Of a stretch of DNA of 64,000 bases, positions 28,599 through 64,000 are shown piece after piece. Position 1 is the first letter of the stretch. Each line of letters starts with the position of its first letter. Position numbers and translations under genes: made by a program. This DNA comes from Balanoglossus misakiensis. Lineage: Eukaryota > Animalia > Hemichordata. The stretch spans positions 7,672,844-7,736,843 of the forward strand of contig CM082588.2 in assembly GCA_040954595.2 (NCBI GenBank). Reading direction: 5' to 3'. The notes under the pieces are model-generated. The model made no database searches. It had not been told where the DNA came from and worked only from the letters and a program-made list of their open reading frames with translations.

Positions 28599-31500
28599 AT
28601 GGCGACCGGTGGTGCATTTTTAACTACAGCCGAGAAGGTGAATCATGCTAGACTTTGTCGACTACTTATTGACGGTGGAACTAAAGCGGTGAGATGTGTA
28701 TTTGACAGCAAGATTCCACCTAATGTGCTTGCGAAAACTCTTAAAAAGCGTAGGGCATCGTTAAAGAAACTACGAATGTCGTATAGAGGACCTAATCCGG
28801 GTCCAAAAGTTATCAGTGATGGTCAGTGGGATCTGTTATACCCAACCCATCCCAACCTTGTCAAGTCTGAACATTTCGACATTACATTGCTCATAGTTTT
28901 ATTACGGAATATCTGTGGCCTTCGACATCCAAGAGATAGAGTATGGACACATCCCTCCCCTAGTGATCTCCGTGTTGAAGCTGATGTGACCCGAATAAGA
29001 GAGTTCAGGAATAGACTTCAACACATGACGGGCACAGCTGTCCCTGAGAGCGAATTTCAATCTTTCTGGGATGACATTAGTAAAGTATTGGTACGTCTTG
29101 GCGCTAAGCAGGGAGATATCGATCAGTTGAAGACTGCGAGTATGGACCTTGCTGAGACAGACAAATACGAACAAACTTTAAAGGACTGGCAAGAATCCGA
29201 CATGCTGGAAGAGAAAGTTGATAAGATATCAGAGACACAGAGTGGCCATAGCAGTACTTTGGCTGATATCGAACAGAACCAACGGGAGAACCAACAAGAA
29301 ACGACTCAACATCTTGATAAGATATCAGAGACACAGAGTGGCCATAGCAGTACTTTGGCTGATATCGAACAGAATCAACGGGAGAACCAACAAGAAACGA
29401 CTCAATATCTTGGTCAGATATCAGAGAGACAGAGTGGCCATAGCAGTACTTTGGCTGATATCGAACAGAACCAACGGGAGAACCAACAAGAAACAACTCA
29501 ACATCTTGGTCAGATATCAGAGACACAGAGTGACCATAGCAGTACTTTGGCTGATATCGAACAGAACCAACGGGAGAACCAACAAGAAACGACTCAACAT
29601 CTGGGTCAGATATCAGAGAGACAGAGTGACCATAGCAGTACTTTGGCTGATATCGAACAGAAACAACGGGAGAACCAACAAGAAACGACTCAACATCTTG
29701 GTCAGATATCAGAGACACAGAGTGGCCATAGCAGTACTTTGGCTGATATCGAACAGAACCAACAAGAAACGACTCAACATCTTGGTCAGATATCAGAGAC
29801 ACAGAGTGGCCATAGCAGTACTTTGGCTGATATCGAACAGAACCAACAAGAAACGACTCAACATCTTGGTCAGATATCAGAGACACAGAGTGGCCATAGC
29901 AGTACTTTGGCTGATATCGAACAGAACCAACAAGAAACGATTCAACATCTGGTTGACATCAAAGAAGGCCTCAAGACTTCACATACCAGTGAGTCAAGAA
30001 CATGTGTTCCAGGTAATAATTAAGATGGAGAAGTGGAATTCATTTCTATGGCTGAAATCTACGACATTATAGCTTTTTTATAATTTGTATAATTTTTGGT
30101 CAAACTTAATTGTTCCTTTATGGTCTCATAAATTATAAGTGCAGATAAGAATTCATATTCCAACTTGGTCAGATGACCCTGAGGGCCAATCTGGGTTAGC
30201 TCATTTCACATCTCAAGTCTTACGTCATAATCATACATCGCATAGACCATCATAAGCAAGTTTTATACTTATTTTTGCAATATATGAGAATGGGAATAAT
30301 CAGGAAATCAAGATAATTACAATTCCACTTTTCTGGGGAGTCCAAAATCTTGTTAGGTGGTGACATGTTGGGTTTTTGCTGCCAGTTATCTTAAAGGGAC
30401 AAAGATTCTCTCTCACTTCCCCTTTTCCATTAATAATGTTTGATACATGACACTGTTTATATTATTCTACATGTGGGTATATACAGTGATTCAACGTTCG
30501 ACCGCACACAACTTCCATCCCACTTGTATGATATGAGAGCAACAAATCTCGCCAAAATGAATATGGTCGAATGTTGATTCACTATATATCCACATGTAGA
30601 ATAACATAAACAGTGTCTTGTATCAAATATAATTAATGGAAAAGGGGCAGCGAGAAAGAGACTTTAATGTCCCTTTAATGGTGACATCATCGTTGCTTAG
30701 TTTAAAAAAAAGATTCTGTTGTACACCACCATTAAAAATAACTTTTTCTATAAATTCTCTCCTTTATCTCAAGATGCTTCCTGTGCTTGGTGCAACTGTA
30801 AGAGTGATAATCTCAATCTATAAATTCTCTCCTTTATCTCAAGATGCTTCCTGTGCTTGGTGCAACTGTAAGAGTGATAATCTCAAGAAGTTTATACGCT
30901 GTTGTGCAGTGATGTATTGTGGGAAAGACTGTCAGGACCAACACTGGAGGAAAGGTCACAGAGAAGAATGCAAAGGTACAATTGATCTTTTTCTGAACTC
31001 CACGTGACCCCACGAGATTTCACGTAGCCACAGACAAAGAGAAAAACAGACTAGCAACGCTATTGTCAAAAGGCGTGAAGTACACCTCCTAATCCCCCTA
31101 TACGTGTCTCGGCTGGCCTTCAAGGTGCAGCTTGTCTCCGAAGATTTCCGAACGTATCCACTTCGGCAATGTCCGGAATTTTCGTGATAATAAAACGAAA
31201 GTGTTTTCGTGAAAGTTTGTGCTGTTGTTGTCAGTCAGCTGTAGACGGAAGGCGAGTGGACAGCGAAATTTTGGGGAAGTTTGAGCATCGGAGAGATGAG
31301 TTTGACCATTTTAATAAAAAATTATGAATATATAATAAGTGTTTGATCGTAAATTTGAAAAGGTTTAATCATCAATCTCGATTTTTTTGGAATGGATTCC
31401 TGTTCGCCGAATCGTGTTCTGTAAACTTGCATGGGATGTAGATGCAAATTTTACTTCTAACGTGTAAATCAAGTGTCAATCGTGAAGTAGTGTTTCAGTC

Positions 31501-34500
31501 GAGTCCTGAGTGCAAAGCTGTGTTAGGCAAGGTTCTGCAGCTGTCGATAATGACGCAACCGCAAAGTTTTCTGGGAAGTCTCTGCGGTGTCTAACCCATT
31601 TGAAACCTATTGTTTGCCGTTGTTTGCCGAGGTGGACAAAACATCAAAGGGACATGCCGTGTTGCTAGTCTGTTTTTTCTCTTTGTCTGTGACGTAGCTA
31701 CATGTAAGCAATTTATATGGGAGGACATTCCCCTGGCACAGGGCAAACACTAACACATGTCCCACCATATTCAATGGCACAAACAATTTCCTTTTTTGTT
31801 AAACTCTGCACCTCTTCTAATTTCTTAGCTACCAACCCGTTGATATAGTAACTAACCAAGTCTCAGGAGATTTCTCAATGAGCTGGAAATCATCATTGTT
31901 AAAGTCTGAACCTATATTCTAGTTACATACCAAGCTAGATAGTATGAAAATATTCACAAACACCTTTTAGTACATGTAAGAACTTATAAATAAGATACTG
32001 AAAATTTCCATGTTTCACGCATAATGTTTGTATTCTCATGTGCTGAGCTGTCTGTCAAAAAGCTGGGGGTAATCACGACATGACCCTGCCTATGTGGGAC
32101 ACAATATGTGGTTCATATACTACGGTAGTTGTGGGTCATATGCTTCTAGTATACCATATGTAACCCCTGACTATATTATACTTAGTACAATGATGTTTTA
32201 CAGCTTGTACTAAATCTGCAATGCAAAAGTCATATCATCAATGTTTAATTGTTTTTCTACAGATACTTCTGCAGGGTTTGAGTGGCTTAAAGACAATCTC
32301 AAAAATTTGTACAGCCATGACTTTGACAAGTTCCAACCTCTGCCATGGAATGAAAACTTCTCACTCCATTTATCTGAAGTGTATACCCGACTGAAGATGG
32401 GAGAGGTTGATGAAAGGGGTAAGCGCTTGCGCACCAATGACAATGAAGCAAATGACTCTGTTGTTCGTGAAAATGCAATATTTGAAGCAGATAGAAAAGG
32501 AGTGAGACCACGTAGAATAAGAATTGAAGGACCTCCAGCTATTGGCAAGTCAATGTTTTCTAGAAAGCTAGCCTACAACTGGGCTTGTGGAAAATTAGAG
32601 CAATTTAAATTAGTCTTTCTGTTGAAAATGAGATATACGAGTAAAGAATCAATCATAGAAACCATATTTGATCAATTACTTCCTGATGATGCAGAAATTT
32701 CCAGAGATGAGCTTGACAAGGTTCTGAAAAGGAATGCAGATTCTGTGCTGTTCCTCTGTGATGGTTTGGATGAAATGTGTAAGGATTTCAAGGAAAGTTC
32801 CGATATTAGTCGGATTATTGCAAAGAAATTATTGCTAGGATGTACAGTAGCTATCACAACCAGGCCCCATGAATGTGACACACAGCTGAAAAACTGTGAT
32901 TCACATTATCACATACAGGGCTTCACAAAGAGTGATTGTAGGGAATATATCAGGAAGTACTTCAAGCATGAGTCTGAGACTGGTGAGAATTTGATCACAA
33001 ATTTAGAACAAAACCTCAAGTTTAAATGGTTGGATGATTTCCTTAGTAATCCCTTACATGTTTCATTTCTTTGTGTACTGTGGGAGGATCATCAAGGTGG
33101 TGACCATTTCCCAACTAGAGTGACAGAGTTGTATTTTGAATTATTGAAGTGTATTTTGAAGAGGTATTGTTCCAAGACTGGAGTCTGTCTTGATGAACAA
33201 GGAGAAGTACCCGTTGATATCATGGCTGATGTAAATAAACTGGCTGCCATTGCTTATAATTATCTGAAACAGGGCAAAATACTCATAAATGAGGTAGATG
33301 TGATGCCATCATGGCTCTTGTCACTAGGGTTACTTGTGCGTGATTGCGGTGTATCTCGCACAAAACCAAAGAAAGTTTGTTTCTTCTGTCACAAAACTTG
33401 GCTGGAATATTTTGCTGCTTTACATATTGCTGAATGTGTGAAGGATACTGCTTCCTTTGATGAGTTTCAATTTCTATCTGACAACATTCACCGCAATTTC
33501 CAAGTCTTTGTATTTCTGACTGGCACTCTGAAGGAGAAAGCTGGTCCAGTATTTAAGGAAATTGGGATGCAGACGTGCAAGTCTGCAGATGATGCTAACT
33601 TAATAGGCAAAATGAACCGCTATATAGATTTCTTACATGAAAGTGTCAATTATCAAGCATTTTTGAAATTCATAGAACCCATCCTTTATCAATTTGAGCG
33701 TTTCATTTGTAATTCTTCATTTTATTATAGAGCAACAACAATGGCTATAATTTCTATGTCTTCACCATCACTATATTTTCTAAGTGACGATTTGAATTTT
33801 CGTGCATTGTATTATTCAGATAGTTACTTGATGATAATCATTGATATGCTGAAGTATGAACACTCACATGAAAGTAGACCTAAATTTTATAACAATCTTG
33901 AGATAAATATCAACAATATGCAATCATCAGCGATATCTTATTTAGCAGAGGCACTGGAGAAGAATCTTATTTCTCTTGAATGGCTTGTGTTGAATGTGAC
34001 TTCATCCAGTGACAAGAATCTGCTTCAGTTGGCAAAAGCTATCAGAGAAACCAAAGCGGTACAAAACATTCAGATCATTGTAGATGATAGGGATAATGTT
34101 GTTGACAGCACTCCCAATGAAAAATGTAAGCAAGGCACCTCAAATAAAGAAACATACTTGACATCACATATTCTAAGAAACCTTATCGATAATGCTGTGA
34201 AAAATAAGCATATTGATTGTTTGTCCTTGCATACAGTTGACCTGTCTGACAATCAACGGGAGAATATTGATAACATTGTTCCATATAAGTCATTGAAACA
34301 GGCCAGGCACTTTCATAATATTGTGGAAACCAAAACAGGTGTAAATAGCGTATTATTGAAAGTTGCTGATATGCTTGAACACTGTCAATCTACCAAGGTT
34401 TGTCATTTTGTACTTTTTGATGGTGTCAGATATTCTGCCATTGAGGGCAGTACTGCAAGAGCTTTGTTAACAGCCATTCAAAATATCAGCACAACAATTA

Positions 34501-35117
34501 AATCTCTTGGCTTGTTTGTCACATCAGAATTTTCAGATGTACTGGAAGATTGTGTTGTTTCATCTGGATTTTTGACAATATCTCATGTTGTGAATGAGAT
34601 TTTACACATTTTGATGTCTAACACCACATTAGAGGATCTTAAGTTATTTATAGAGAATGAAAATGTTGATGCTGTATCGAAGTTTATTCAATGTAATAAG
34701 AATGTCAAGTCACTGTCCTTTGCTCTGTATCAGTCCAGAATGAGCATAGACCATTTATGTTCAGCTCTCGGTGCTGCTTTGAGTTCCAATACAACTCTGG
34801 AAAGCTTTGCGCTGGAGTTTTGTTATGAGTTTGATATACTTTTTGGTAACCCTGAACTTTCCACTGAGCAGAAGTATATTAGTCAATGGATTTTAGCAAC
34901 ACATAGGTTATTGTGTGGTGGAAAAACTGCATTGAAGACGATTTCATTTACTTTTCCATCATATAGTCCAAAACGCAGGGATGACATTGTCAATGTCATG
35001 ACCGAGTATTTTAAAGGAAATGTTTCAGGGTCATACCAATACACTGTGAAGAGGACAATCAAGATCTTTTCTAACATGTATATTCACGTTCTGAAAGTAT
35101 CGATCAGTGAACCCTAG
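28599..35117 (+). CDS. NLR-like gene copy 1 (~1466 aa): HEPN_DZIP3 - 8 heptad repeat units - MYND-like finger - NACHT - LRR-like
   Basis: Exons 28599-30012, 30844-30975, 32263-35117 (phase 1/1). HEPN motifs FDITLL..LLRNICGL and RIREFRNRLQH; MYND YCGKDCQ..HW..GHREEC; Walker A GPPAIGKS, Walker B LFLCDGLDE, TTRP, NPL, FCHKTWLEYFAA. Confidence 0.9.
29223..29950 (+). repeat. Coding VNTR, 84/96-bp units, 8 copies
   Basis: QISETQSGHSSTLADIEQNQ(RENQ)QETTQHLG. Confidence 0.95.
31029..31691. mobile_element. Non-autonomous P-element-like insertion in intron 2 of copy 1
   Basis: TIR cacagacaaagagaaaaacagactagcaac ... gttgctagtctgttttttctctttgtctgtg, 7-bp TSD ACGTAGC; empty site in copies 2-4. Confidence 0.85.
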
Positions 35118-35289: not shown

Positions 35290-35700
35290 ACTGACGAGGA
35301 ATTTTCAACATACTGTATCCAGATGGAAATATAATCAATTTACTAGGGACACAAAGTGAACAAATAAACCAAATTTGATTTGTTCACTTTATAACAGTAC
35401 TAGAATCAAATATTTACCACTAAGTGTTTTTCTTGACCAGAACTATGACAAATTCAAAAGGCTTATAAGTTCCACAGATTTACAGGTATTATTGAATATT
35501 TGAAAGTTATGTTTATAAAGCTATGGCTGTGAGAAGAACAGCCACTTATAGGATGAATAATATTGTTCAACTTTCTTTGTATTTGTGTAGTCAGCATTCA
35601 CTTTGTATTTGTGTGATGTATTACTTTATTTGAGAACTGGATGTTCTCTTTGCATTTGGACCTGAGGTCTTGAAACGCAATAAATTACTTTTATTATTAC
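35290..35700 (+). mobile_element. 3' end of a non-LTR retrotransposon (RT C-terminus + 3'UTR), also present after copies 2 and 3
   Basis: Remnant LICSLYNSTRIKYLP...NYDKFKRLMSSTDL.VLLNICKYVYKAMAVR (clearest in copies 2/3), then AATAAA and a (TAT)n tail. Confidence 0.6.
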
Positions 35701-37171
35701 TGGCTGTGAGAAGAGCAGCCACTTGCCACTCATAGAGTGTATAATATTGTTCAACTTTCTTTGTATTTGTGTAGTCAGCATTCACTTTGTATTTGTGTGA
35801 TGTATTACTTTATTTGAGAACTGGATGTTCTCCTTGCATTTGGACCTGAGGTCTTGAAACGCAATAAATTACTATTATTATTACTGGCTGTGAGAAGAGC
35901 AGCCACTTGCCACTCATAGAGTGTATAATATTGTTCAACTTTCTTTGTATTTGTGTAGTCAGCATTCACTTTGTATTTGTGTGATGTATTACTTTATTTG
36001 AGAACTGGATGTTCTCCTTGCATTTGGACCTGAGGTCTTCAAACGCAATAAATTACTATTATTATTACTGGCTGTGAGAAGAACAGCCACTTGCCACTCA
36101 TAGAGTGTATAATATTGTTCAACTTTCTTTGTATTTGTGTAGTCTGCATTCACTTTGTATTTGTGTGATGTATTACTTTATTTGAGAACTGGATGTTCTC
36201 TTTGCATTTGGACCTGAGGTCTTGAAATGCAATAAATTACTTTTATTATTACTGGCTGTGAGAAGAGCAGCCACTTGCCACTCATAGAGTGTATAATATT
36301 GTTCAACTTTCTTTGTATTTGTGTAGTCTGCATTCACTTTGTATTTGTGTGATGTATTACTTTATTTGAGAACTGGATGTTCTCCTTGCATTTTGACCTG
36401 AGGTCTTGAAATGCAATAAATTACTTTTATTATTACTGGCTGTGAGAAGAGCAGCCACTTGCCACTCATAGAGTGTATAATATTGTTCAACTTTCTTTGT
36501 ATTTGTGTAGTCTGCATTCACTTTGTATTTGTGTGATGTATTACTTTATTTGAGAACTGGATGTTCTCCTTGCATTTTGACCTGAGGTCTTGAAATGCAA
36601 TAAATTACTTTTATTATTACTGGCTGTGAGAAGAGCAGCCACTTGCCACTCATAGAGTGTATAATATTGTTCAACTTTCTTTGTATTTGTGTAGTCTGCA
36701 TTCACTTTGTATTTGTGTGATGTATTACTTTATTTGAGAACTGGATGTTCTCTTTGCATTTGGACCTGAGGTCTTGAAATGCAATAAATTACTTTTATTA
36801 TTACTGGCTGTGAGAAGAGCAGCCACTTGCCACTCATAGAGTGTATAATATTGTTCAACTTTCTTTGTATTTGTGTAGTCTGCATTCACTTTGTATTTGT
36901 GTGATGTATTACTTTATTTGAGAACTGGATGTTCTCTTTGCATTTGGACCTGAGGTCTTGAAATGCAATAAATTACTTTTATTATTACTGGCTGTGAGAA
37001 GAGCAGCCACTTGCCACTCATAGAGTGTATAATATTGTTCAACTTTCTTTGTATTTGTGTAGTCTGCATTCACTTTGTATTTGTGTGATGTATTACTTTA
37101 TTTGAGAACTGGATGTTCTCCTTGCATTTTGACCTGAGGTCTTGAAATGCAATAAATTACTATAATTATTA
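35524..37171 (+). repeat. ~184-bp tandem repeat, 9 units (2 units at the paralogous sites ~47566-47930 and ~55851-56212)
   Basis: Unit tggctgtgagaagagcagccac...gcaataaattacttttattattac. Confidence 0.92.
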
Positions 37172-38380
37172 CGAAGGACACAATTTGTATGTAAGGAAAT
37201 ATGTGGAGAGTAGCAGAATATTTATTTAAACCAAGTGACACACTTTTGTAAGACACATTCCTGTACAGATTCAATTTAGTTCTGTTTCTTACCTCTGTGC
37301 AAAAATGCCAACATTTGCTGGAAATTGTACGAAACTTATCAAGTTTGGAGATGGCACAACAAGAGTTTATATATCTTAACTCCTTGTTATACATTTGCTT
37401 ATTTCTATTTATTTCTTCACTTTATTATTTTTTATTGAAACGTTTTTTTCTTAATTTCTATAGATATATGTAAATGAGTCTTGTTCTACTTGGTCTTTTT
37501 TTAAATAAATATAGTCTGAGAAGAAAGCAATCCTGAAAAATCTGTTTTCTTTATTTTAATTAAAACAGGATGAATAAAAAGATCGAAAGGTTGTATTATG
37601 TAAAGCAAGGGGAACATAATGTTAAACGAATGTAAAAGTGTGACTCTAGTGCAACTAATGCAAAATATATTTAAATGACAAAGTCTCTCTTGTTGCCCCT
37701 TTTTTACATTAATTAGGTTAAATACAAGACACCATTATGATATCCTACATACCGATATATAGTGCATCAACGTTCCACTACACACAACTTCCATCCCACT
37801 TATCGACATGAGAGTGAAAAACTCGCCAAAATGAATAATCGGTCTCAATAAATTACTAAATAGAGCAATGTCTAGGAGTCTTCTCAAAACATTGTTGCAC
37901 ATGGCCAGATCACATGATTGATAATAAAGAATATATTCATCGATATCGTCACACATATCGCTTAAAATGATGTGACTTTTTTAGAGTGCATGTCTACAAA
38001 ACCAAGACTTTTATCATTCAGATGTACTCAAGGCATTCTGTTTTATATCTTCAAATTTGTTCCATTAAAATCCTACACACAGTTTTACTACAATAATTAT
38101 ATACAATATATTGCTTACACAAACCCTTCACACTTGAGCTGTACAGTGCTTTCGTCAGCGTCAAAGCCAAAATGTTAGTATTGACTCCACAAATACTGCA
38201 ACTCAACCAACATTACATTTCGAAAACTTGTTGATGAGGTCATCAACATAGACATAAATAAATATGGGAAAGTACACCTCCTTAACCTAACTACACGGAT
38301 ACATAGAGGAATGCCCTATTACCATTTTGACCTATCTGAAGTCAAATGCCATGAATATATTCAGGCGAAAACGAGGTTGA

Positions 38381-38391
38381 GGGGATTCCCC
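38381..38391 (+). promoter_or_regulatory. NF-kB site upstream of NLR copy 2
   Basis: GGGGATTCCCC, a canonical kB motif ~480 bp before the ATG. Confidence 0.55.
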
Positions 38392-39684
38392 GATGATATC
38401 ACCATTACGGACAACCATATATTTATTTTTGTTTATATGTACTTGCATACTAGTATTTTGCGCCAATGTTAGTGGCCTTCACATTTGAAATCGTAGCCCC
38501 CAAATCATCGATTTGTTGGACTTTTCTACCCATATGATATAAAGTTACGAGAAACTTCATCTGATTGTATCATTCTAACCACTTAACTCTAGCACTCAAA
38601 ATATTTCAAGTGAGTTTCACATATACATATACATGGAACGGTAAGGCCACTGTGCCAAGCCTCTGTTTGTCATAGTTTAGAGTTCAGACTGCGTGTTTGT
38701 GATTTGCACACAGAGTTGGAATTTGCGCCTGGTTTTAGCAAATGTGAACATTTTAGTGTATCACCAACACTGTTCGAGTTAATCTTGGAAGTGGAGATCT
38801 TCATATATCTGCGCCCAAGTGCTTCCAGAACTGGAGGCAAGTTGTGTTTTGTGATATCGTACAAAGATGGCGACCGGTGGTGCATTTTTAACTACAGCCG
38901 AGAAGGTGAATCACGCTAGACTTTGTCGACTACTTATCGACGGTGGAACTAAAGCGGTGAGATGTGTATTTGACAGCAAGATTCCACCTAATTGTAATTG
39001 TAATTGATTTATTTTATCGAATGAAAAAATTATATGCATATGAATATTGGAACAAAGAAAAAGATAAAATACTATTCATCCGATATGGTCACGGAATTAG
39101 TTCGATAATGTGCACCTAATGCGCTTGCATTAGCACCTAATGTGCTTGCAAACACCCTTAACAACCATAAGGCGTCGTTAGTAAGAATACGAATGTCGTA
39201 TAAAGGACCTAATCCAGGTCAAAAGGTTATCAGTGATGGTCAGTGGGATCTGTTATACCCAACCCAACCCAACCTTGTCAAGTCTGAAGACTTCGACATT
39301 ACATTGCTCACAGTTTTATTACGGAATATCTGTGGCCTTCGACATCCAAGAGATAGAGTATGGACACATCCCTCCCCTGGTGATCTCCGTGTTGAAGCTG
39401 ATGTGGCCCGAATAAGAGAGTTCAGGAATAGACTTCAACACATGACGGGCACAGCTGTCCCTGACAGCGAATTTCAATCTTTCTGGGATGACATTAGTAA
39501 AGTATTGGTACGTCTTGGCGCTAAGCAGGGAGATATCGATCAGTTGAAGACTGCGAGTATGGACCTTGCTGAGACAGACAAATACGAACAAACTTTAAAG
39601 GACTGGGAAGAATCCGACATGGTGCTGGAAAAGTTCCTACAGCGTATAGAAGAGAAAATTGGCGATCAAACTCGTCAGCTTGGT

Positions 39685-41747: not shown

Positions 41748-42498
41748 CCTCAAGACTTCACATACCAGTGAGTCAAGAACATGTGTTCCATGTAATAATT
41801 AAGATTGACAATTTGAATGCATTTCTATGGCTGAAATCTACGACATTATAGCTTTTTTTATAATTTGTATAATTTTTGGTCAAACTTAATTTTTCCTTCA
41901 TGGTCTCATAAATTATATGTGCAGATAAGAACTCATATTCCAATTTGGTCAGCTGCCTTGGGCTGACCCAGGGCCAAACTGGGTTAGCTTTTTTCTCATC
42001 TCAAGTCTTACGTCATAATTATACATTGCATAGACCATCATAGGCAAATTTTATACTTATTTTTGCAATATATGAGAATGGGAATAATCAGGAAATCAAG
42101 ATAATTACAATCCCACTTTTCTCCCTCAAGACTTCACATACCAGTGAGTCAAGAACATTTGTTCCATGTAATAATTAAGATTGACAATTTGAATGCATTT
42201 CTATGGCTGAAATCTACGACATTATAGCTTTTTTTATAATTTGTATAATTTTTGGTCAAACTTAATTTTTCCTTCATGGTCTCATAAATTATATGTGCAG
42301 ATAAGAACTCATATTACAATTTGGTCAGCTGCCTTGGGCTGACCCAGGGCCAAACTGGGTTAGCTTTTTTCTCATCTCAAGTCTTACGTCATAATTATAC
42401 ATTGCATAGACCATCATAGGCAAATTTTATACTTATTTTTGCAATATATGAGAATGGGAATAATCAGGAAATCAAGATAATTACAATCCCACTTTTCT
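41748..42498 (+). repeat. ~376-bp tandem duplication spanning the exon-1 donor of copy 2
   Basis: cctcaagacttcacataccagtgag... repeated at 41748 and 42124. Confidence 0.85.
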
Positions 42499-49766: not shown

Positions 49767-49777
49767 GGGGATTCCCC
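49767..49777 (+). promoter_or_regulatory. NF-kB site upstream of NLR copy 3
   Basis: GGGGATTCCCC. Confidence 0.55.
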
Positions 49778-50268: not shown

Positions 50269-53200
50269 ATGGCGACCGGTGGTGCATTTTTAACTACAGC
50301 CGAGAAGGTGAATCACGCTAGACTTTGTCGACTACTTATTGACGGTGGATCTAAAGCGGTGAGATGTGTATTTGACAGCAAGATTCCACCTAATCTTACA
50401 CTTGCTGACACACTGAGGAACCATAAAGTTTCGTTACAGAGACTTCGTCCAAATGTTATCAGTGATGGTCAGTGGGATCTGTTATACCCAACCCAACCCA
50501 ACCTTGTCAAGTCTGAAGACTTCGACATTACATTGCTCATAGTTTTATTACGGAATATCTGTGGCCTTCGACATCCAAGAGATAGAGTATGGACACATCC
50601 CTCCCCTGGTGATCTCCGTGTTGAAGCTGATGTGGCCCGAATAAGAGAGTTCAGGAATAGACTTCAACACATGACGGGCACAGCTGTCCCTGACAGCCAA
50701 TTTCAATCTTTCTGGGATGACATTAGTAAAGTATTGGTACGTCTTGGCGCTAAGCAGGGAGATATCGATCAGTTGAAGACTGTGAGTATGGACCTTGCCG
50801 AGACAGACAAATACGAACAAACTTTAAAGGACTGGGAAGAATCTGACATGGTGCTGGAAATGGTCCTACAGCGTATGGAAGAGAAAGTTGATCAGATATC
50901 AGAGACACAGAGTGGCCATAGCAGTACTTTGGCTGATATCGAACAGAACCAGCAAGAAACGACTCAACATCTGGGTCAGATATCAGAGACACTGGTTGAC
51001 ATCAAAGAAGGCCTCAAGACTTCACATACCAGTGAGTCAAGAACTTGTGTTCCAGGTAATATTTAAGATGGAGAAGTGGAATTCATTTCTTTGGCTGAAA
51101 TCTACGACATTTATATAGCTTTTTTATAATTTGCATAATTTTTGGTCAAACTTAATTTTTCCTTCATAGTCTTATGAATTATATGCGCAGATAAGAACTC
51201 ATATTCCAACTTGGTCAGATGACCCTGAGGGCCAATCTGGGTTAGCTTATTTCTCATCTCAAGTCTTACATCATAATCATACATTGCATAGACCATCAGA
51301 AGCAAGTTTTATACTTATTTTTGCAATATATGAGAATGGGAATAATCAGGAAATCACGATAATTACAATTCCACTTTTATGGGGAGTCCAAATATCATGT
51401 TAGGTGGTGACATGTTGAGTTTTTGCCTCCAGTTATCTTAAAGGGACAAAGACTCTCTCTCACTTCCCCTTTTCCATTAATAATGTTTGATACATGACAC
51501 TGTTTATGTTATTCTACATGTGGATATATATAGTGAATCAACATTCAACCACAGACAACTTCCATCCCACTTGTATGATATGAGAGCAACAAATGTCACC
51601 AAAATGAATATGGTCGAATTATGATTCACTATATATCCACATGTAGAATAACATAAACATTGTCTTGTATCAAATATAATTAATGGAAAAGGGGCAGCGA
51701 GAAAGAGACTTTGCTTAGTTTTAAAAAAAAGATTCTGTTGTACAGCACCATTAAAAATAACTTTTTTCTATAAATTCTCTCCTTTATCTCAAGATGCTTC
51801 CTGTGTTTGGTGCAACTGTAAGAGTGATAATCTCAAGAAGTTTATACGCTGTTGTGCAGTGATGTATTGTGGGAAAGACTGTCAGAAACAACACTGGATG
51901 AAAGGTCACAGAGAAGAATGCAAAGGTACAATTGATCATTTTCTGAACTCCACGTGACCCCACGAGATTTCACGTAGCTAAGCAATTTATATGGGAGGAC
52001 ATTCCCTTGGCACAGGGCAAACAATTAACACATGTCCCACCATATTCAATGGCACAAACAATTTCCTTTTTTGTTAAATTCTGCACTGGTTCTAGATACA
52101 TTCCAAGCTTGATAGAATTTCTTAGCTACCAACCTATTGCTATGGTAATTAACCAAGTCTCGGGAGTTTTCTCAATGAGCTGAAAATCATCATTGTTAAA
52201 CTTTGAACCTATATTCTAGTTACATACCAAGCTAGATACCGTAGTATGAAAATATTCACAAACACCTCTTAGTACATGTAAGAACTTATAAATAAGATAC
52301 TGAAAATCTCCATGTTTCACGCATAATTTTTGTAATCTCATGTGCAGAGCTGTCTGTCAAAAAGCTGGGGGTAATCACGACATGAGCCTGCCTATATGGA
52401 ACACAATATGTGGTTCATATACTACAGTAGTTGTGGGTCACAAGACTTCTAGTATACCATATGTAACCCCTGACTATATTATACTTAGTACAATGATGTT
52501 TTACAGCTTGTGAAAATAGTAAAATAAACAGCAACTATCTGCAATACAAAAGTCATACTATCAATATTATAATTGTTTATTTCTTACAGATACTTCTGCA
52601 GGGTTTGAGTGGCTTAAAGACCATCTCAAAGGATTGTACAGCCATGACTTTGACAAGTTCCAACCTCTGCCATGGAATGAAAACTTCTCACTCCATTTAT
52701 CTGATGTGTATACCCGACTGAAGATGGTAGAGGTTGATGAAAGGGGTAAGATCATTAAGGACAATGAAGAAAATGACACTGTTGTTCATGAAAGTGCAAT
52801 ATTTGAAGCAGATCGAAATGTAGTGAGACCACGTAGAATAAGAATTGAAGGACCTCCAGCTATTGGCAAGTCAATGTTTTCTAGAAAGCTGGCCTACAAC
52901 TGGGCTTGTGGAAATTTAGAGCAATTTAAATTAGTCTTTCTGTTGGAAATGAGATATATGAGTAAAGAATCAATCATAGAAACCATATTTGATCAATTAC
53001 TTCCTGATGATGCAGAAATTTCCAGAGATGAGCTTGACAAGGTTCTGAAAAGGAATGCAGATTCTGTGCTGTTCCTCTGTGATGGTTTGGATGAAATGTG
53101 TAATGATTTCAAGGAAAGTTCTGATATTAGTCAGATTATTGCAAAGAAATTATTGCCAAGATGTACAGTAGCTATCACAACCAGGCCCCATGAATGTGAC

Positions 53201-55489
53201 ACACAGCTGAAAAACTGTGATTCACATTATCACATACAGGGCTTCACAAAGAGTGATAGTAGGGAATATATCAGGAAGTACTTCAAGCATGAGTCTGAGA
53301 CTGGTAAGAATTTGATCAAAAATTTGGAACAAAACCTCCAGTTTGAGTGGTTGGATGATTTTCTTAGTAATCCCTTACATGTTTCATTTCTTTGTGTACT
53401 GTGGGAGGATCATCAAGATGGTGACCATTTCCCAACTAGAGTGACAGAGTTGTATTTTGAAGTATTGAAGTGTATTTTGAAGAGGTATTGTTCCACCAAG
53501 CCTGGAGTCAGTCTTGATGAACAGGGAGAAGTACCCATTGATATCATGGCTGATGTAAATAAACTGGCTGCCATTGCTTTCAATTATCTGAAACAGGGAA
53601 AAATACTCATAAATGAGGTAGATGTGATGCCAACATGGCTCTTGTCACTAGGGTTACTTGTGCGTGATTGCGGTGTATCTCGCACAAAACCAAAGAAAGT
53701 TTGTTTCTTCTGTCACAAAACTTGGCTGGAATATTTTGCTGCTTTGCATATTGCTGAATGTGTGAAGGATGCTGCTTCCTTTGATGAGTTTCAATTTCTA
53801 TCTGACGACATTTATGACCGCAATTTCCAAGTCTTTGTATTTCTGACTGGCACTCTGAAGGAGAAAGCTGGTCCAGTATTTAAGGAAATTGGGATGGAGA
53901 TGTGCAAGTCTGCAGATGATGTCGGCCGTAAGTTTAGAATGGACAACTATATAGCTTTCTTACATGAAAGTAACAACTATCAAGAATTTTTTAAATTCAT
54001 AGAACCCATCCTTTATCGATTGAAGTGTTTCATTTGTAAGCCATTTTATTTTAGTGTAAGAGCAATGGTTGTCAATTCTATGTCTTCACCATCACCATAT
54101 ATTCTAAGTGACGATTTGAATTTTCTTACATTGTATTATGAAGGTAGTTACTTGATGATAATCATTGATATGCTGAAGTATGAACACTCATGTGAAAGTA
54201 GACCCAAATTTAATAAAATTCTCTGGTTAGATATCAACAATATGCAATCATCACAGATTTCCTATTTGGCAGAGGCACTGGAGAAGAATCTCATTTCTCT
54301 TGAATGGCTTGTGTTGAAAGTGACTTCATCCAGTGACAAGAATCTGCTTCAGTTGGCAAAAGCTATCAGAGAAACCAAAGCGGTACAAAACATTCATATC
54401 ATTGTAGATGATAGGGATAATGTTATTGACAGCACTCCCAATGAAAAATGTAAGCAAGGCACCTCAAATAAAGAAACAGATTTGACATCACGCACTTTAA
54501 GAAACCTTATCGATAATGCTGTGAAAAATGAGCATATTGATTGTTTGTCATTGCATACAGTTGACCTGTCTGACCATCAATGGGAGAATATTGATAACAT
54601 TGTTCCATATAAATCATTGAAACAGGCCAGGCACTTTAATAATGTTGTGGAACCCAAAACCGAAACAGGTTTAAATAGCGTATTATTGAAAGTTGCTGAT
54701 ATGCTTGAACACTGTCAATCTACCAAGGTTTGTCATGGGGTACTTTTTGATAGTGTCAGATATTCTGCCATTGAGGGCAGTACTGCAAGTGCTTTGTTAA
54801 AAGCTGTTCAAAATATCAGCAAAACAATAAAATCTCTTAGTTTGTTTGTCCCATCAGAATTTGTAAATATACCTTGTATAGTTCCATCTGGATCATTGCC
54901 AATTTCTGATGTGAAGAATGAGATTTTACACATTTTGATATCTAACACCACATTAGAGGATCTTAAGTTATTTATAGAGAATGACAATGTTGATGCTGTA
55001 TCGAAGTTTATTCAATGTAATAAGTATGTCAAGTCACTGTCATGTGCTCTGTATCAGTCCAGAATGAGAATAGACCATTTACGTTCAGCTCTCTGTGCTG
55101 CTTTGAGTTCCAATACAACTCTGGAAAGCTTTGCGCTGCATATGTGTGATGAGTCAGAGGCAATGTATAGTAACTTTGAACTTTCCACTGAGCATAAGTA
55201 CCGGTATATTAGTCAATTGATTTTACCTACACACAGGTTATTGTGTGGTGGAATAACCCCATTGAAGACAATTTCATTTACTTTCCCATCACCAAGGCCA
55301 GAACGCAGTGATTATATTGTCAATGTCATGACTGAGTATTTTAAAGGAAATGTTTCAGGGTCATACCAATACACTGTGAAGAGGCGGATCAGGATCATGT
55401 ATGATTTGTACCGGTATATTCACGTTCTTAAAGTATCCATCAGTGAACCCCAGAGAATGCTGAATGCCACATTTGCATGTGCTATATAG
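50269..55489 (+). CDS. NLR-like gene copy 3 (~1272 aa): HEPN_DZIP3 - 1 repeat unit - MYND-like - NACHT - LRR-like
   Basis: Exons 50269-51055, 51794-51925, 52590-55489; all motifs intact. Confidence 0.9.
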
Positions 55490-57494
55490 GGGAAATTCTC
55501 CATGAAAAATTGTAAACTTTAATTTTTTTACATACACTTAATTTAAGGTACAGATATAAAATATACCAGGTAACAGACTATGCTATAGATATCAATGCTT
55601 GCACAGTTAGACAAACTGTCAAGGGATTTTCAACATATTGTATCCAGATTGAAATATAATCAATTTACTAAGGACAAATAAAGTGAACAAATAAACACAA
55701 TTTGATTTGTTCACTTTATAACTGTACTAGAATCAAATATCTACCATGAAGTGTTTTTCTTGACCCCAAACTATGACAAATTCAAAAGGCTTATGAGTTC
55801 CACAGATTTACAGGTATTATTGAATATTTGCAAGTATGTTTATAAAGCTATGGCTGTGAGAAGAACAGCCACTTATAGGATGAATAATATTATTCAACTT
55901 TCTTTGTATTTGTGTAGTCTGCATTCACTTTGTATTTGTGTGATGTATTACTTTATTTGAGAACTGGATGTTCTCTTTGCATTTGGACCTGAGGTCTTCA
56001 AACGCAATAAATTACTATTATTATTACTGGCTGTGAGAAGAGCAGCCACTTGCCACTCATAGAGTGTATAATATTGTTAAACTTTCTTTGTATTTGTGTA
56101 GTCTGCATTCACTTTGTATTTGTGTGATGTATTATTTTATTTGAGAACTGGAAGTTCTCCTTGCATTTGGACCTGAGGTCTTCAAACGCAATAAATTACT
56201 ATTATTATTACTAAGGACACAATTTGTATGTAAGGGAATATGTGGAGAGTAGCAGAATATTTATTTAAACCAAGTGACACACTTTTGTAAGACACATTCC
56301 TGTACAGATTCAATTTAGTTCTGTTTCTTACCTCTATGCAAAAATGCCAACATTTGCTGGAAATTGTATGAGACTTATCAAGTTTGGAGATGGCACAACA
56401 AGAGTTTATATATCTTAACCCATTGTTATGCATTTGCTTATTTCTATTTATTGCTTTACTTTATTGTTTTTTTATTGAAATGTTTTTTTCTTAATTTCTA
56501 TAGAACCTGTAAATGAGACTTGTTCCACTTGGTCTTCCTTGAAATAAATATAGTCTGAGAAGAAAGCAATTCTGCAAAATCTGTTTTCTTTATTTGGTCT
56601 AAACTAGTTTTTTGGGGTTGACAAAGGAAATACACTATTGCAAAATGGTATTTTTTTGGTGCACATTTAACGCAGAAACAGTTGACCTTGGAAATCTTCA
56701 TTTGATTTCCAAAAAATTGTCTCAAAAAACAACAGAAAATACTAGTTGTAGGTATTTGGATGTTTTCTCACGCCATCTTTTAAAAATTCTCAAAAAAAAA
56801 GAGATACCGTCGTATAAAACTGTGTTAAAGGTATACAGTCACCTCCAATTTAAATACGCTCATGTATGGCTGAAATGGCTTATTTGAGTGTTCTACAAGA
56901 CATATGGAGGCGCTGTTTTTTTTTTTCGCGTGTGCCACCCACTGAAAATCTGTGATTGGCTAGATCTCAATTTGCCATGGTAACTGTAGCTAACTGTATA
57001 CCTTTAATTACTTGAGCTGCCACAAGATTGCCTCAGCGTTTTTGCTAAGGCCGGGAAACACTGGTAAATGAGTTGGGAACCCTGGTAACGCTTCTGCTAG
57101 ATACCAATATGATTGCATTGATATACAAAGGGGAACTCTGGTAAAATGACTTGGGAATCCTGGTAACATTTATCTGGCAACTGTCCGCTCGCTTTCTAAA
57201 ACTTTTATGTTTACCCATGGAGATAAACTCGCTGTAAGCCTTATATTTAATATGGCGATCTCAACATGTAAACACACAAAATAAATCAAACGCGAGAGGT
57301 TCGGACGTTAGGACAAGTTAATCGCATCATATTTGGAGTCGGTTAGGAGGCCGAAGTAGACAGGGAAAGGATTTTGCTTCGATAAAATTGAAATTCGGCC
57401 GAAAAAGCACCAGTTTTTTCTATGGCGCCTTGCAGGGCTGTGGTGGAGGCCGTGTAATGCCGGGAACACACAGACCTGTACGCAGAGCTACACA

Positions 57495-58830
57495 TTAAAG
57501 GCTGAGAGGGCTGATAATAATATTTTGGGGAATAGAAGGTTCCCGTGTGCCCAGCTACAAATGATTTGTTTGGAAATTTTTCACATATAGTGGGCATATA
57601 ATACATTATCAGATCTCCGAAAGTGAAGAAAATATATAAATTTTGAGTGTTTTCTGAAAATGACGTTTTTGGGGCAAAAAGTGGCAAAAATGGCATTTAT
57701 TCTTGAGTAGGATCAATAAGACTGCTATTTCTGGAATCAGCAGCATTTTTTACATAGGATGAACATTTCATATATCACATGATCTCTGAGCTTTATGAAG
57801 AAAAGTTTGTTTTTAAATTTTTTTCTAAAAATGGCCTTTTTGGGCAAAAACTTTCCAAAAGGGCATTTTTGCATTAGGTTGGGTCAATAAATCTGCTTTT
57901 TTGGAATAATCACCAAATTTTACATAGGGTGGGCATATAATACATTATCAGATCTCCGAAAGTGAAGAAAATATATAAATTTTGAGTGTTTTCTAAAAAT
58001 GACGTTTTTGGGCAAAAAGTGGCAAAAATGGCATTTTTTCTTGAGTAGGGTCAATAAGACTGCTATTTCTGGAATCAGCACCATTTTTTACATAGAATGG
58101 ACATTTCATATATCCAATGATCTCTGAATATGAAAAACACAATTTATTTTTAGTTTTTTTGTAAAAATGACCATTTTTGACCTCAAAAAGTGGCCAAAAA
58201 TGGCATTTTTGTATTGATTGAGGTCAAAAAGACTGCTTTATTTTTTAAAGTCACCACTTTTAACATAGAATTGACTTTCCATATATCACCAGATCAATCA
58301 TTATGAAGAAAACCGTGTGTTTTAAATGTTTTCTAAAAATGACGTTTTTTGGGCAAAAAATGGTCAAAAAGGCAATTTTCTGTTGTTTTGGGTCAATCGA
58401 ACTACTTTTTTCGTAATATTCACCAAATTTTACATAGAATAAGCATATCATATGTCATCAGATCCCAGAATGTGACGAATACAGTGTGTTTTTAGTGTTT
58501 TCTAAAAAAGACCATTTTTGGGTTAAAAATGGCCAAAATGGCAATTTTGTCTTGAGTGGGGTCAATAAGACTGACTTTTTTGGAATCAGCACCATTTTTT
58601 ACATAGAATGGACTTCTCAAACCTTCCTTACCAAAAATTCTGATTAACGGCACCTATCTCCTAGGGTATAAATGTAAAGAAAACGGCGTGTTTTTAATGT
58701 TTCTAAAAACGACCGTTTTGAGGGCTAAAAGTGGTCAAAATGGCAATTTTGTCTTAAGTTGGGTCAGTAAGACTTTTTTTTCGAATCAACACCAGTTTCA
58801 ACTTAGAACGGACTTAAGCTTCCCAAACCT
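57495..58830. repeat. Satellite-bearing element: about 7 degenerate ~170-bp units
   Basis: Recurrent gggtcaataagactg...ggaatcagcacc...tacatagaatggac; its left end matches 28225-28305. Confidence 0.7.
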
Positions 58831-59010
58831 TCTATACAAAATTCTGTTTAATCTATTTATATTTAATCTAATTTGATTTATCTATTTCTAAGAAATGTAT
58901 GTTTTCCAAAAGTAAATGATGACAACTTGAAATTGCAACAAACTTGTTAGTATCACTGTTAATATCTATAATAGTAAAATTTATATTTCCCCCTGTTTTA
59001 CCCCCGACAG

Positions 59011-60158: not shown

Positions 60159-60225
60159 TTGCCTCTCAAGAGGGCGCCATCAATGACCTTTGGCCTTTCA
60201 TTGATGGCGCCCTCTTGAGAGGCAA
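60159..60225. other. Perfect 28-bp-stem hairpin inserted in the upstream region of copy 4
   Basis: ttgcctctcaagagggcgccatcaatga - 11-nt loop - tcattgatggcgccctcttgagaggcaa; absent from copies 2 and 3. Confidence 0.85.
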
Positions 60226-60241
60226 GCGATAACGAGGTTGA

Positions 60242-60252
60242 GGGGATTTCCC
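60242..60252 (+). promoter_or_regulatory. NF-kB site upstream of NLR copy 4
   Basis: GGGGATTTCCC (variant that still fits GGGRNNYYCC). Confidence 0.55.
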
Positions 60253-60733
60253 GATGATATCACCCTTACAGACAACCATATATTTCTTTTTGTTTATATG
60301 TACAATTGCATACTAGTATTTTGCGCCAATGTCAGTGGCCTTCACATTTGAAATCGTAGCCCCCAAACATCGATTTGTTGGACTTTTCTACTCATATGAT
60401 ATAAAGTTACGAGAAACTTCATCTAATTGTATCATTCTAACCACTTAACTCTAGCACTCAAAATATTTCAAGTTAGTTTCACATATACATATACATGGAA
60501 CAGTAAAGGCCACTGTGCCATTAGCCTCTGTTAGTCAATTAGTCAAGAGTTCAGACTGCGTGTTTGTGATTTGCTCAAAGAGTTGGAATTTGCGCCTGGT
60601 TTTAGAAAATGTGAACATTTTAGTGTATCACCAACACTGTTCGAGGTAATCTTGGAAGTGGAGATCTTCATATATCTGCGCCCAAGTGCTTCCAGAACTG
60701 GAGTCAAGTTGTGTTTTGTGATATCGTACAAAG

Positions 60734-63700
60734 ATGGCGACTGGTGGTGCCTTTATAACCACACCCGAGAAGGTGAATCATGCTAGACTTTGTCGACTAC
60801 TTATCGACGGCGGATCTAAAGCGGTGAGATGTGTATTTGACAGCAAGATTCCATCTAATGTGCTTGCAAACACCCTTAACAAGCATAAGGTGTCGTTAGT
60901 GAGACTACGAATGTCGTATAAAGGACCTAAACCGGGTCAAAAGGTTATCAGTGATGGTCAGTGGGATCTGTTATACCCAACCCAACCCAACCTTGTCAAG
61001 TCTGAAGACTTCGACATTACATTGCTCACAGCTTTATTACGGAATATCTGTGGCCTTCGACGTCCAGGACATAAAGTATGGAAATATCCCCCCACTGGTG
61101 ATCTCGGTGTTGAAGCTGATGTGGCCCGAATAAGAGAGTTCAGGAATAGACTTCAACACATGACGGGCACAGCTGTCCCTGAGAGCGAATTTCAATCTTT
61201 CTGGGATGACATTAGTAAAGTATTGGTACGTCTTGGCGCTAAGCAGGGAGATATCGATCAGTTAAAGACTGCGAGTATGGACCTTGCCGAGACAGACAAA
61301 TACGAACAAACTTTAAAGGACTGGGAAGAATCTGACATGGTGCTGGAAAAGTTCCTACAGCGTATGGAAGAGAAAATTGGCGATCAAACTCGTCAGCTTG
61401 GTCAGATATCAGAGACACAGAGTGGCCATAGCAGTACTTTGGCTGATATCGAACAGAACCAACAAGAAACGACTCAACATCTTGGTCAGATATCAGAGAC
61501 ACAGAGTGACCATAGCAGTACTTTGGCTGATATCAAACAGAACCAACGGGAGAACCAACAAGAAACAACTCAACATCTTGGTCAGATATCAGAGACACAG
61601 AGTGACCATAGCAGTACTTTGGCTGATATCAAACAGAACCAACGGGAGAACCAACAAGAAACGACTCAACATCTTGGTCAGATATCAGAGACACAGAGTG
61701 ACCATAGCAGTACTTTGGCTGATATCGAACAGAACCAACGGGAGAACCAACAAGAAACGACTCAACATCTTGGTCAGATATCAGAGACACAGAGTGACCA
61801 TAGCAGTACTTTGGCTGATATCGAACAGAACCAACGGGAGAACCAACAAGAAACGACTCAACATCTTGGTCAGATATCAGAGACACAGAGTGACCATAGC
61901 AGTACTTTGGCTGATATCGAACAGAACCAACGGGAGAACCAACAAGAAACAACTCAACATCTTGGTCAGATATCAGAGACACAGAGTGACCATAGCAGTA
62001 CTTTGGCTGATATCGAACAGAACCAACGGGAGAACCAACAAGAAACGACTCAACATCTTGGTCAGATATCAGAAACACAGAGTGACCATAGCAGTACTTT
62101 GGCTGATATCGAACAGAACCAACAAGAAACGACTCAACATCTTGGTCAGATATCAGAGACACTGGTTGACATTAAAGAAGGCCTCAAGACTTCACATACC
62201 AGTGAGTCAAGAACGTGTGTTCCAGGTAATAATTAAGATGGAGAAGTGATATTCATTTCTATGGCTGAAATCTACAATCATAGTTGCTTAGTTTGAAAAA
62301 AAGATTCTGTTGTATGTACACCACCATTAAAAATAACTTTTTCTATAAATTCTCTCCTTTATCTCAAGATGCTTCCTGTGCTTGGTGCAACTGTAAGAGT
62401 GATAATCTCAAGAAGTTTATACGCTGTTGTGAAGTGATGTATTGTGGGAAAGACTGCCAGAAACAACACTGGATGAAAGGTCACAGAGAAGAATGCAAAG
62501 GTACAATTGATCCTTTTCTGAACTCCACATGACGTACCCACGAGATTTCACGTAGCTAAGCAATTTATATGGGAGGACATTCCCCTGGCACAGGGCAAAC
62601 AATTAACACGGCCCACCATTTTCAATGGCACAAACAATTACATTTTTGTTAAACTCTGCACCTATTCTAATTTCTTAGCTACCAACACGTTGCTATAGTA
62701 ATCATCCAAGTCTCAGGAGATTTCTCAATGAGCTGGAAATCATCATTGTTAAAGTCTGAACCTATATTCTAGTTACATACCAAGCTAGATAGTATGAAAA
62801 TATTCACAAACACCTTTTAGTACATGTAAGAACTTATAAATAAGATACTGAAAATCTCCATGTTTCACGCATAATGTTTGTATTCTCATGTGCAGAGCTG
62901 TCTGTCAAAAAGCTTGGGGTAATCACAACATGACCCTGCCTATATGGAACACAATATGTGGTTCATATACTACGGTAGTTATGGGTCATAATACTTCTAG
63001 TATACCATATGTAACCCCTGACTATATTATACTTAGTACAATGATGTTTTACAGCTTGTGAAAATAAACAGCAACTATCTGCAATACAAAAGTCATACTA
63101 TCAATATTATAATTGTTTTTCTACAGATACTTCTGCAGAGTTTGAGTGGCTTAAAGACTATCTCAAAGAATTGTACAGCCATGACTTTGACAAGTTCCAA
63201 CCTCTGCCATGGAATGAAAACTTCTCGCTTCATTTATCTGATGTGTATACCCGACTGAAGATGGTAGAGGTTGATGAAAGGGGTAAGATCATTAAGGACA
63301 ATGAAGAAAATGACACTGTAGTTCATGAAAGTGCAATATTTGAAGCAGATAGAAAAGGAGTGAGACCACGTAGAATAAGAATTGAAGGACCTCCAGCTAT
63401 TGGCAAGTCAATGTTTTGTAGAAAGCTGGCCTACAACTGGGCTTGTGGAAAATTAGAGCAATTTAAATTAGTCTTTCTGTTGGAAATGAGATATATGAGT
63501 AAAGAATCAATCATAGAAACCATATTTGATCAATTACTTCCTGATGATGCGGGGATTTCCAGAGATGAGCTTGACAAGGTTCTGAAAAGGAATGCAGATT
63601 CTGTGCTGTTCCTCTGTGATGGTTTGGATGAAATGTGTAAGGATTTCAAGGAAATTTCTGATATTAGTCGGATTATTGCAAAGAAATTATTGCCAAGATG

Positions 63701-64000
63701 TACAGTAGCTATCACAACCAGGCCCCATGAATGTGACACACAGCTGAAAAACTGTGATTCACATTATCACATACAGGGCTTCACAAAGAGTGATTGTGGG
63801 GAATATATCAGGAAGTACTTCAAGCATGAGTCTGAGACTGGTGAGAATTTGATCATAAATTTAGTACAAAACCTCTGGTTTGAATGGTTGGGTGATTTCC
63901 TTAGTAATCCCTTACATGTTTCATTTCTTTGTGTACTGTGGGAGGATCATCAAGATGGTGACCATTTCCCAACTAGAGTGACAGAGTTGTATTTTGAAGT
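60734..64000 (+). CDS. NLR-like gene copy 4 (partial, runs off window): HEPN_DZIP3 - 8 repeat units - MYND-like - NACHT
   Basis: Exons 60734-62225, 62369-62500, 63127->64000; Walker A/B intact in the visible part; intron 1 shortened to 143 bp. Confidence 0.88.
61403..62146 (+). repeat. Coding VNTR, 8 units (2 x 84 bp + 6 x 96 bp)
   Basis: 744 bp = 8x84 + 6x12. Confidence 0.95.

Follow-up and report, generated by a model that had tools for sequence, protein, structure and literature searches.

Receptors in which a DZIP3-type HEPN domain is joined to a NACHT ATPase, with or without leucine-rich repeats (LRRs), form a class already described from cnidarians, bivalves, amphioxus and hemichordates; the idea that they act as RNases has been published as well. 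The array of four tandem genes from the hemichordate Balanoglossus misakiensis that is described here compares most closely with this class. Fusions of animal DZIP3-type HEPN to NACHT, DEATH and LRR domains have been reported, and where HEPN of the related CXorf38 family is fused to NACHT an RNase L-like or antiviral role was proposed (PMC3710099). More than 50 HEPN-NACHT proteins, in tandem arrays, are reported from the pearl oyster, with the Rx4H motif in 131 of 202 oyster HEPN domains (PMC9646362). In anthozoans the number is 17–83 per species, part of a cnidarian expansion (PMC8260672) that is also reported elsewhere (PMC10236652). [quoted passage not shown] HEPN-NACHT proteins have also been counted in amphioxus and hemichordates (bioRxiv 10.1101/2025.07.21.665930; PMC13012124). 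Dataset S5 of PMC13012124 gives Saccoglossus 2 and Ptychodera 3 (or 5 under a looser cut-off); it also lists 0 NACHT-LRR genes in both hemichordates by Pfam survey, and 25–27 genes in Ptychodera that join a death effector domain (DED) to NACHT. Shuffled HEPN effectors are described in marine invertebrates (PMC8195603), and HEPN is among the effectors of bacterial NACHT proteins (bioRxiv 10.1101/2022.07.19.500537).

The window, meaning the whole 64,000-nt stretch that was analysed (GenBank assembly GCA_040954595.2, contig CM082588.2, positions 7,672,844–7,736,843, forward strand), holds the array in its right-hand part. Judged by its sequence, the array is young and a real example of the known receptor class; it has a MYND exon that can be skipped, a chimeric origin that can be traced, and what is predicted to be a cryptic LRR solenoid. 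With invertebrate HEPN_DZIP3-NACHT(-LRR) NLRs (PF18738 plus PF05729) its predicted proteins share an N-terminal DZIP3-type HEPN with Rx4H, a coiled-coil linker, NACHT, a putative repeat sensor, tandem arrangement of the genes and a proposed RNase effector role. It differs from them in having a MYND exon between the coiled coil and NACHT (0/148 relatives), a NACHT that appears to come from a DED-NACHT clade, and a putative solenoid that is invisible to Pfam. A previous sequence-only reading of the locus had proposed a sensor-effector RNase receptor and had regarded its combination with a length-variable coiled coil and a MYND cassette as undescribed. The first proposal remains the most likely function, although it is not a new reading (PMC3710099). 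Of the second, the MYND cassette stands but the length-variable coiled coil does not, given the repeat linkers of other relatives described below. What is left as new, as far as the comparisons made here indicate, is the MYND cassette together with the chimeric construction.

Array organization and gene models

Self-BLAST and alignment place the starts of the four plus-strand units at approximately 28405, 38673, 50083 and 60540, with a spacing of 10.3–11.4 kb. The paralogs are 85–97 % identical, with a DNA identity of about 88–97 % in the comparison of the units. The same order of frames recurs in all four: a long one comes first, then a short one rich in cysteine, then another long one. Exon 1 offers two usable phase-1 donors, exon 2 is 132 nt long with phase 1-1, and exon 3 starts in phase 1. 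The exons are as follows.

28599–30012, + strand: copy 1 exon 1; HEPN_DZIP3 with RNRLQH at 29007, and a coiled-coil variable number tandem repeat (VNTR) with 8 units; a second possible phase-1 donor follows 29988
30844–30975, + strand: copy 1 exon 2; 132-nt phase 1-1 MYND cassette
32263–35117, + strand: copy 1 exon 3; NACHT with Walker A at 32529 and Walker B at 32754, helical domains and predicted LRR-like solenoid; joined model of 1,466 aa
38867–41791, + strand: copy 2 exon 1 (pseudogene); HEPN with RNRLQH at 39424, VNTR of 23 units, insertion with stops
42933–43064, + strand: copy 2 exon 2; MYND cassette, frame open
43702–46427, + strand: copy 2 exon 3 (pseudogene); TAA at 44043, TAA at 44730, frameshift stop at 46425
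50269–51055, + strand: copy 3 exon 1; HEPN_DZIP3 with RNRLQH at 50653, short coiled coil with 1 unit
51794–51925, + strand: copy 3 exon 2; MYND cassette
52590–55489, + strand: copy 3 exon 3; NACHT and about 11 predicted beta-alpha repeats; joined model of 1,272 aa
60734–62225, + strand: copy 4 exon 1; HEPN_DZIP3 with RNRLQH at 61142, VNTR of 8 units
62369–62500, + strand: copy 4 exon 2; MYND cassette, the preceding intron 1 being just 143 nt
63127–64000, + strand: copy 4 exon 3; frame open as far as the end of the window, which truncates it past the NACHT core

Joining exons 1, 2 and 3 at GT-AG introns leaves a single terminal stop in copies 1 and 3, and in copy 4 a frame that is open up to position 64000, where the window ends and the copy is left incomplete. 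In all three copies the joined frame stays open whether exon 2 is included or skipped. Copy 2, by contrast, is a pseudogene. About 141 nt inserted into its exon 1 (approximately 38993–39133) bring the first stop at 39005, and exon 3 carries, besides its two TAA stops, a 4-nt frameshift ending at 46425. We infer that exons 1, 2 and 3 of each unit would splice into one HEPN–coiled coil–MYND–NACHT–LRR-like protein. The first Met of exon 3 lies at or after residue 45 past the acceptor, with no earlier start, and the two closest relatives become similar to it no more than 2 residues from the acceptor; exon 3 therefore appears to need an upstream exon. Of 13 indels in exon 3, 12 preserve the frame, whereas only 4 of the 13 in intron 2 do so (Fisher P=0.004).

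These results bear out the four tandem paralogs of about 10–11 kb of the sequence-only reading, and its calls of HEPN, MYND and NACHT domains are matched in Pfam (HEPN_DZIP3 and zf-MYND in 4/4 copies each, NACHT in both frames tested). Its joining of separate frames into one protein agrees with the phase-1 model. The retention of HEPN and Walker motifs by all four copies holds in the DNA, but copy 2 is dead and copy 4 truncated. The supposed LRR-like end has no LRR match in Pfam and is a matter of predicted fold, and the MYND cassette, while matching its profile, lacks one zinc-binding Cys in every copy.

The MYND exon

All four exon-2 frames match Pfam zf-MYND (PF01753; E 1e-8 to 4e-9, 35.5–37 bits against a gathering cut-off of 22.7). 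Seven of the eight canonical ligands (Cys4 plus Cys3His) are kept; the third zinc Cys is Phe in 4/4 copies, with spare Cys residues nearby, and the same position is Cys in 324 of 338 pattern matches in 150 of 154 MYND proteins. A Y-x5-Q-x3-W triad is present in 4/4 copies with the spacing of Y540, Q546 and W550 of BS69, the residues with which that protein binds PxLxP peptides (PMC4742278). BS69/ZMYND11 likewise places its MYND after a coiled coil; its coiled coil-MYND (CC-MYND) dimer binds EBNA2 and its MYND binds E1A (PMC4742278). The likeness is an analogy only, as BS69 is a chromatin reader without NACHT or HEPN, and the MYND of the array is closer to the ankyrin-MYND and SMYD types, minus one zinc Cys. 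The family-specific profiles for the BS69/ZMYND8 CC-MYND stayed below their cut-offs (PF24324, 13.8 bits against 27; PF23460, 19.8 bits against 27).

MYND was absent from the 148 HEPN or NACHT relatives by precomputed Pfam, phmmer and pattern searches. In the other direction, HEPN or NACHT queries had no match in the best 150 of the 154 MYND proteins found with a query that started two residues past the first Cys. Within those 150, the closest single-domain MYND belongs to a Glandiceps ankyrin-MYND protein (P0258), with 55 % identity over the whole exon. No MYND-NACHT or MYND-HEPN fusion was found by title in the literature, most subscription journals lying outside the search; the word ‘MYND’ is missing from the eight supplements of PMC8260672, and the available part of PMC3499355 does not link MYND and NACHT. 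An in-frame, skippable 132-nt MYND exon 3′ of the coiled coil looks to be a new, unreported part of the receptor class.

Inclusion of the exon in transcripts is considered probable, in which case it would most likely serve as an optional docking module for a partner with a proline motif. Two counts weigh against this: 6 of the 7 MYND codons that vary among copies change the residue, and in a stretch of only 132 nt the absence of indels falls short of significance (P ~0.07). On both counts a proof of purifying selection on the exon was rejected; the copies are too young for such selection to be visible. It is possible, although on balance we doubt it, that the exon is a decaying relic, normally skipped, and that an ordinary HEPN–coiled coil–NACHT–LRR receptor is made, which would leave the core mechanism unaffected but not the novelty. 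The frame survives skipping, the donor GTACAA and acceptor AAG are far from the splice-site consensus, a doubled acceptor is tolerated in copy 1, and both the Phe at the third ligand and the non-synonymous codons fit decay. However, 4/4 copies keep the frame, both splice sites, the other seven ligands and the triad; the exon is free of indels, whereas the following intron has 13 in about 650 nt; copy 4 has retained the exon and its acceptor although intron 1 has shrunk; and the neighbouring Cys could substitute for the lost ligand. An integrated decoy is an unlikely further explanation. In such a receptor, the coiled coil would pair two MYND fingers, as in BS69/ZMYND11, and a viral protein with tandem PxLxP motifs would trip the receptor or align the HEPN dimer. 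The order of coiled coil and MYND and the spacing of the binding residues are those of BS69 (PMC4742278), 4 of the 6 changed residues lie within about five positions of the triad, and a closest relative in an otherwise unrelated hemichordate ankyrin-MYND protein fits a copied host module. Against these stand the generic nature of the triad among MYND domains and a divergence that is indistinguishable from neutral, and the explanation depends on a putative ligand as well as on exon inclusion. Still more doubtful is its extension to a switchable decoy, by analogy a CC-MYND bait under an HEPN RNase, in which a viral PxLxP protein would set off the destruction of RNA and each gene, by including or skipping the 132-nt exon, would have two modes of sensing. 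Plant NLRs with integrated domains similarly hold an extra host-like module; a decoy role is shown in some plants, whereas for MYND it is a hypothesis. If the MYND is a decoy, the concept of integrated domains would reach beyond plants to animals, and the switchable form would be an animal counterpart of the plant receptors, coupled to an enzymatic head that kills.

Relatives and a probable chimeric origin

The best 19 of 28 NACHT relatives are from the hemichordates Ptychodera, Glandiceps and Saccoglossus, to which the array proteins are about 50 % identical; two frames of the window that were looked up are absent from the protein collection searched. In a quick maximum-likelihood tree, from which rows with fewer than 180 aligned residues were excluded, the array NACHT clusters with these 19 hemichordate proteins at 99 % support; DED is present in 15 of them and HEPN in none. 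The closest are DED-NACHT proteins of Ptychodera, Glandiceps and Saccoglossus (for instance P0001 and P0002, the latter being XP_070556172.1), with 51–52 % identity over about 400 aa, and P0002 aligns over 97 % of exon 3. These proteins differ from the array in having DED, in some cases with OTU, where the array has HEPN–coiled coil–MYND. Two of the same NACHT clade, P0003 and P0005, are hemichordate OTU-DED-NACHT proteins, another instance of an enzymatic head on this NLR family.

The HEPN head has different neighbours. By pairwise identity its best relatives are from Ptychodera, and in a tree of the best 45 of 120 matches it groups with Ptychodera P0033 and P0035 (XP_070561656.1) at 53–54 % identity and 95 % support. 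Both share the MATGG start and RNxLQH with the array, but have a short unrepeated linker, no MYND and a NACHT of a distant clade, 28 % identical to that of the array. It should be weighed against the resulting picture that the NACHT and HEPN trees are both quick trees.

HEPN, MYND and NACHT-LRR would each have a different nearest hemichordate relative, and all are joined in phase 1, so that the locus appears to display three-part shuffling. We infer that a hemichordate DED-NACHT gene had its head exchanged, HEPN taking the place of DED, and that a MYND exon with symmetric phases was inserted behind the new head; with all introns in phase 1, three-part exon shuffling is the simplest reading. 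A chimeric origin, with NACHT from the DED-NACHT clade and HEPN from another family, looks new. Bacterial NACHT/Avs proteins with HEPN effectors resemble the proteins predicted for the array in combining an enzymatic effector, a STAND switch and a repeat sensor in one chain (bioRxiv 10.1101/2022.07.19.500537). In contrast to these, the array gene is split by introns and its close relatives with a named source are all animal, the nearest being hemichordate. Nothing in the comparisons points to a recent bacterial origin.

HEPN head and coiled-coil linker

HEPN_DZIP3 (PF18738) is matched by 4/4 exon-1 frames with E 2e-39 to 9e-43 (133–146 bits against a cut-off of 27). RNRLQH, an RxxxxH motif, is found in every copy at the positions listed above, and R129, N130 and H134 are invariant in 72/72 aligned HEPN domains. 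No match for HEPN was found among PDB sequences. Catalysis by HEPN dimers and the activation of NLRs are established for those families, and the HEPN heads of the array would likewise form a composite active site by dimerization and likely cleave RNA.

The linker between HEPN and MYND consists of units of 28 or 32 aa, numbering 8, 23, 1 and 8 in copies 1–4. It holds no proline and has a hydrophobic period of 3.52–3.54. A 28-mer equals four heptads and a 32-mer adds a four-residue stutter, and the register is therefore kept at every change of length. The longest array of 23 units is in the dead copy 2, and the intact copy 3 has a single unit; repeat number is probably tolerated slippage that preserves the coiled-coil register, and no new device. 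A length-variable linker as a unique feature was rejected, since 5 of the 110 relatives that could be scored also have repeat linkers, with a 14-residue period in P0043, P0141, P0041 and P0062 and a 38-residue period in P0148. Copy 3, compact and intact at 1,272 aa, is suited to a first biochemical test.

NACHT domain and C-terminal half

Both exon-3 frames tested match Pfam NACHT (E 2e-27 and 9e-29). Walker A (GPPAIGKS) and Walker B (LCDGLDE) are present in 4/4 copies; the sensor-1 TTR and PLhhxxhC motifs are also found, as is the winged-helix His motif in the three copies that reach that far.

The C-terminal half is likely, on modelling, to be a cryptic LRR solenoid. A single-sequence fold of exon 3 gave a predicted local distance difference test score (pLDDT) of 36, and an alignment-based model (38 rows) a mean pLDDT of 77 with about 11 beta-alpha repeats from residue 543. 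The latter model matches NLRC4, NOD2 and NLRP3 over its whole length (E ~1e-26, Z 22–25), and residues 542–945 match RanGAP (Z 17.6, root-mean-square deviation 5.8, 312 aligned) and RNase inhibitor (Z 15.3). Several results speak against a solenoid of this kind. Pfam finds no LRR in the C-terminal half; the model alignment held coral LRR proteins, a possible bias; with a hemichordate-only profile, no LRR-only protein is among the best 60 PDB matches shown; and Atlas look-alikes score only 0.75–0.78. The LRR is likely but not established because of the coral rows and the outcome of the hemichordate-only profile. The C-terminal region alone had no homolog among 7,991 scored candidates. The predicted fold suggests that LRRs of hemichordate NLRs, scored as 0 NACHT-LRR by Pfam survey, are missed by Pfam.

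Residues that vary among three copies are concentrated in the helical domain 2 (HD2)/linker (33 %) and the solenoid (24 %), against 10–12 % in the NACHT core (P=2e-8). Variable sites are not enriched on strands (16/75 against 35/166 on helices) and the usual concave-face signature is therefore missing; positive selection on LRR strands was rejected on the same counts. The ratio of non-synonymous to synonymous differences (pN/pS) between copies is noisy and often near 1, at 0.33–0.89 in HEPN and 0.46–1.13 in the NACHT core. Alignment columns 450–600 reach a pN/pS of 1.13–1.68, in three non-independent pairs, and are suggestive only.

Proposed mechanism and alternatives

We lean slightly towards a mechanism, drawn from homology, in which a ligand at the variable C-terminal half frees NACHT, oligomerization brings the HEPN heads together by way of the coiled coil, and the paired heads cleave RNA. 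The HD2 and solenoid would bind a pathogen or damage signal, NACHT would exchange ADP for ATP and oligomerize, the coiled coil would join two HEPN heads into a composite active site, and cleavage of host or viral RNA would stop translation or kill the cell. To be set against this is the result of the literature search, in which no RNase-activity test on any animal HEPN_DZIP3 NLR was found. Another view, which we find improbable, is that HEPN is not the killing step but binds RNA or acts as a scaffold, the protein being a sensor or modulator in mixed oligomers with DED-NACHT receptors that recruit caspase-8-like proteases. The descent of NACHT from the DED-NACHT clade means that the oligomer surfaces may still fit, and Ptychodera has 25–27 DED-NACHT genes; the invariant Arg-Asn-His set, however, argues for catalysis, as does the retention of the motif in 194 of 202 oyster HEPN domains (PMC9646362). 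It is very improbable that exons 1 and 3 belong to separate genes, or that the array was created by faulty assembly. When exon 1 is continued into its intron, a stop follows within four codons, and the product would be an HEPN–coiled coil protein; and HEPN-only proteins are common in oyster (PMC9646362). Separate genes are nonetheless countered by the lack of a shared start before the NACHT module in exon 3, by the matching exon phases, and by Ptychodera proteins that have the same MATGG start and carry NACHT. Copies that differ by 3–15 % and have private insertions are unlike collapsed or doubled reads.

Copy differences and non-coding elements

Two further features of the array can be added to those listed above.

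30747–30886, + strand: 70-nt tandem duplication that doubles the exon-2 acceptor, in copy 1 only
38381–38391, + strand: GGGGATTCCCC, a kappaB-like site; copy 2 begins about 490 nt downstream of it

If the upstream acceptor of copy 1 were used, a stop would follow at about aa 488. At 55450–55489, copy 3 has CAG where copy 1 has its TAG stop, and the readthrough adds 12 residues.

The sequence GGGGATT(C/T)CC, which we take to be an NF-kappaB motif, lies about 490 nt upstream of copies 2–4, with homologous sites at 49767 and 60242, against 0.10 expected per window. Copy 1 has no such site upstream and lacks the corresponding region. NF-kappaB control of copies 2–4 is a candidate and only a lead, because the motif was chosen after inspection and its three occurrences are homologous.

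A family of short inverted repeats resembling miniature inverted-repeat transposable elements (MITEs) is found at 9062–9403, 19658–19966, 20985–21151, 21797–22151, 30391–30678, 37677–37837, 42546–42835 and 51438–51713. One MITE-like element lies within intron 1 of copies 1–3 and is gone from copy 4. Intron 2 of copy 1 alone contains an insertion of about 676 nt (31029–31704); it is bounded by terminal inverted repeats of 30 nt and is likely what remains of a DNA transposon. A 376-nt duplication at 41748–42498 comprises the end of copy 2 exon 1 and its donor sites. Additionally, a 184-nt tandem repeat, the second VNTR of the unit, follows the stop codons at 35541–37172, 47567–47930 and 55868–56212; behind copy 1 it runs to 8.9 units, behind copies 2 and 3 to about 2. 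A degenerate 169-nt tandem repeat of 6 units lies between copies 3 and 4 (57576–58613).

Elsewhere in the window, a probable multi-exon gene occupies 1668–12504 on the minus strand. Its frames are an acidic, proline-rich one with a 192-nt repeat (10873–12504), a Gly-rich one (7731–8129), 6111–6677, and 1668–2984, which ends with a hydrophobic transmembrane-like stretch and a short tail; none has a notable match in Pfam, NCBIfam or PDB. Protein-like frames at 23605–24069 and 18002–18634, also on the minus strand, had no significant Pfam or NCBIfam match and are probably exons of one gene within 18002–24069. A CAC/ACC-rich simple repeat at 15053–15502 has His-rich or Trp/Val-rich frames and is probably non-coding.

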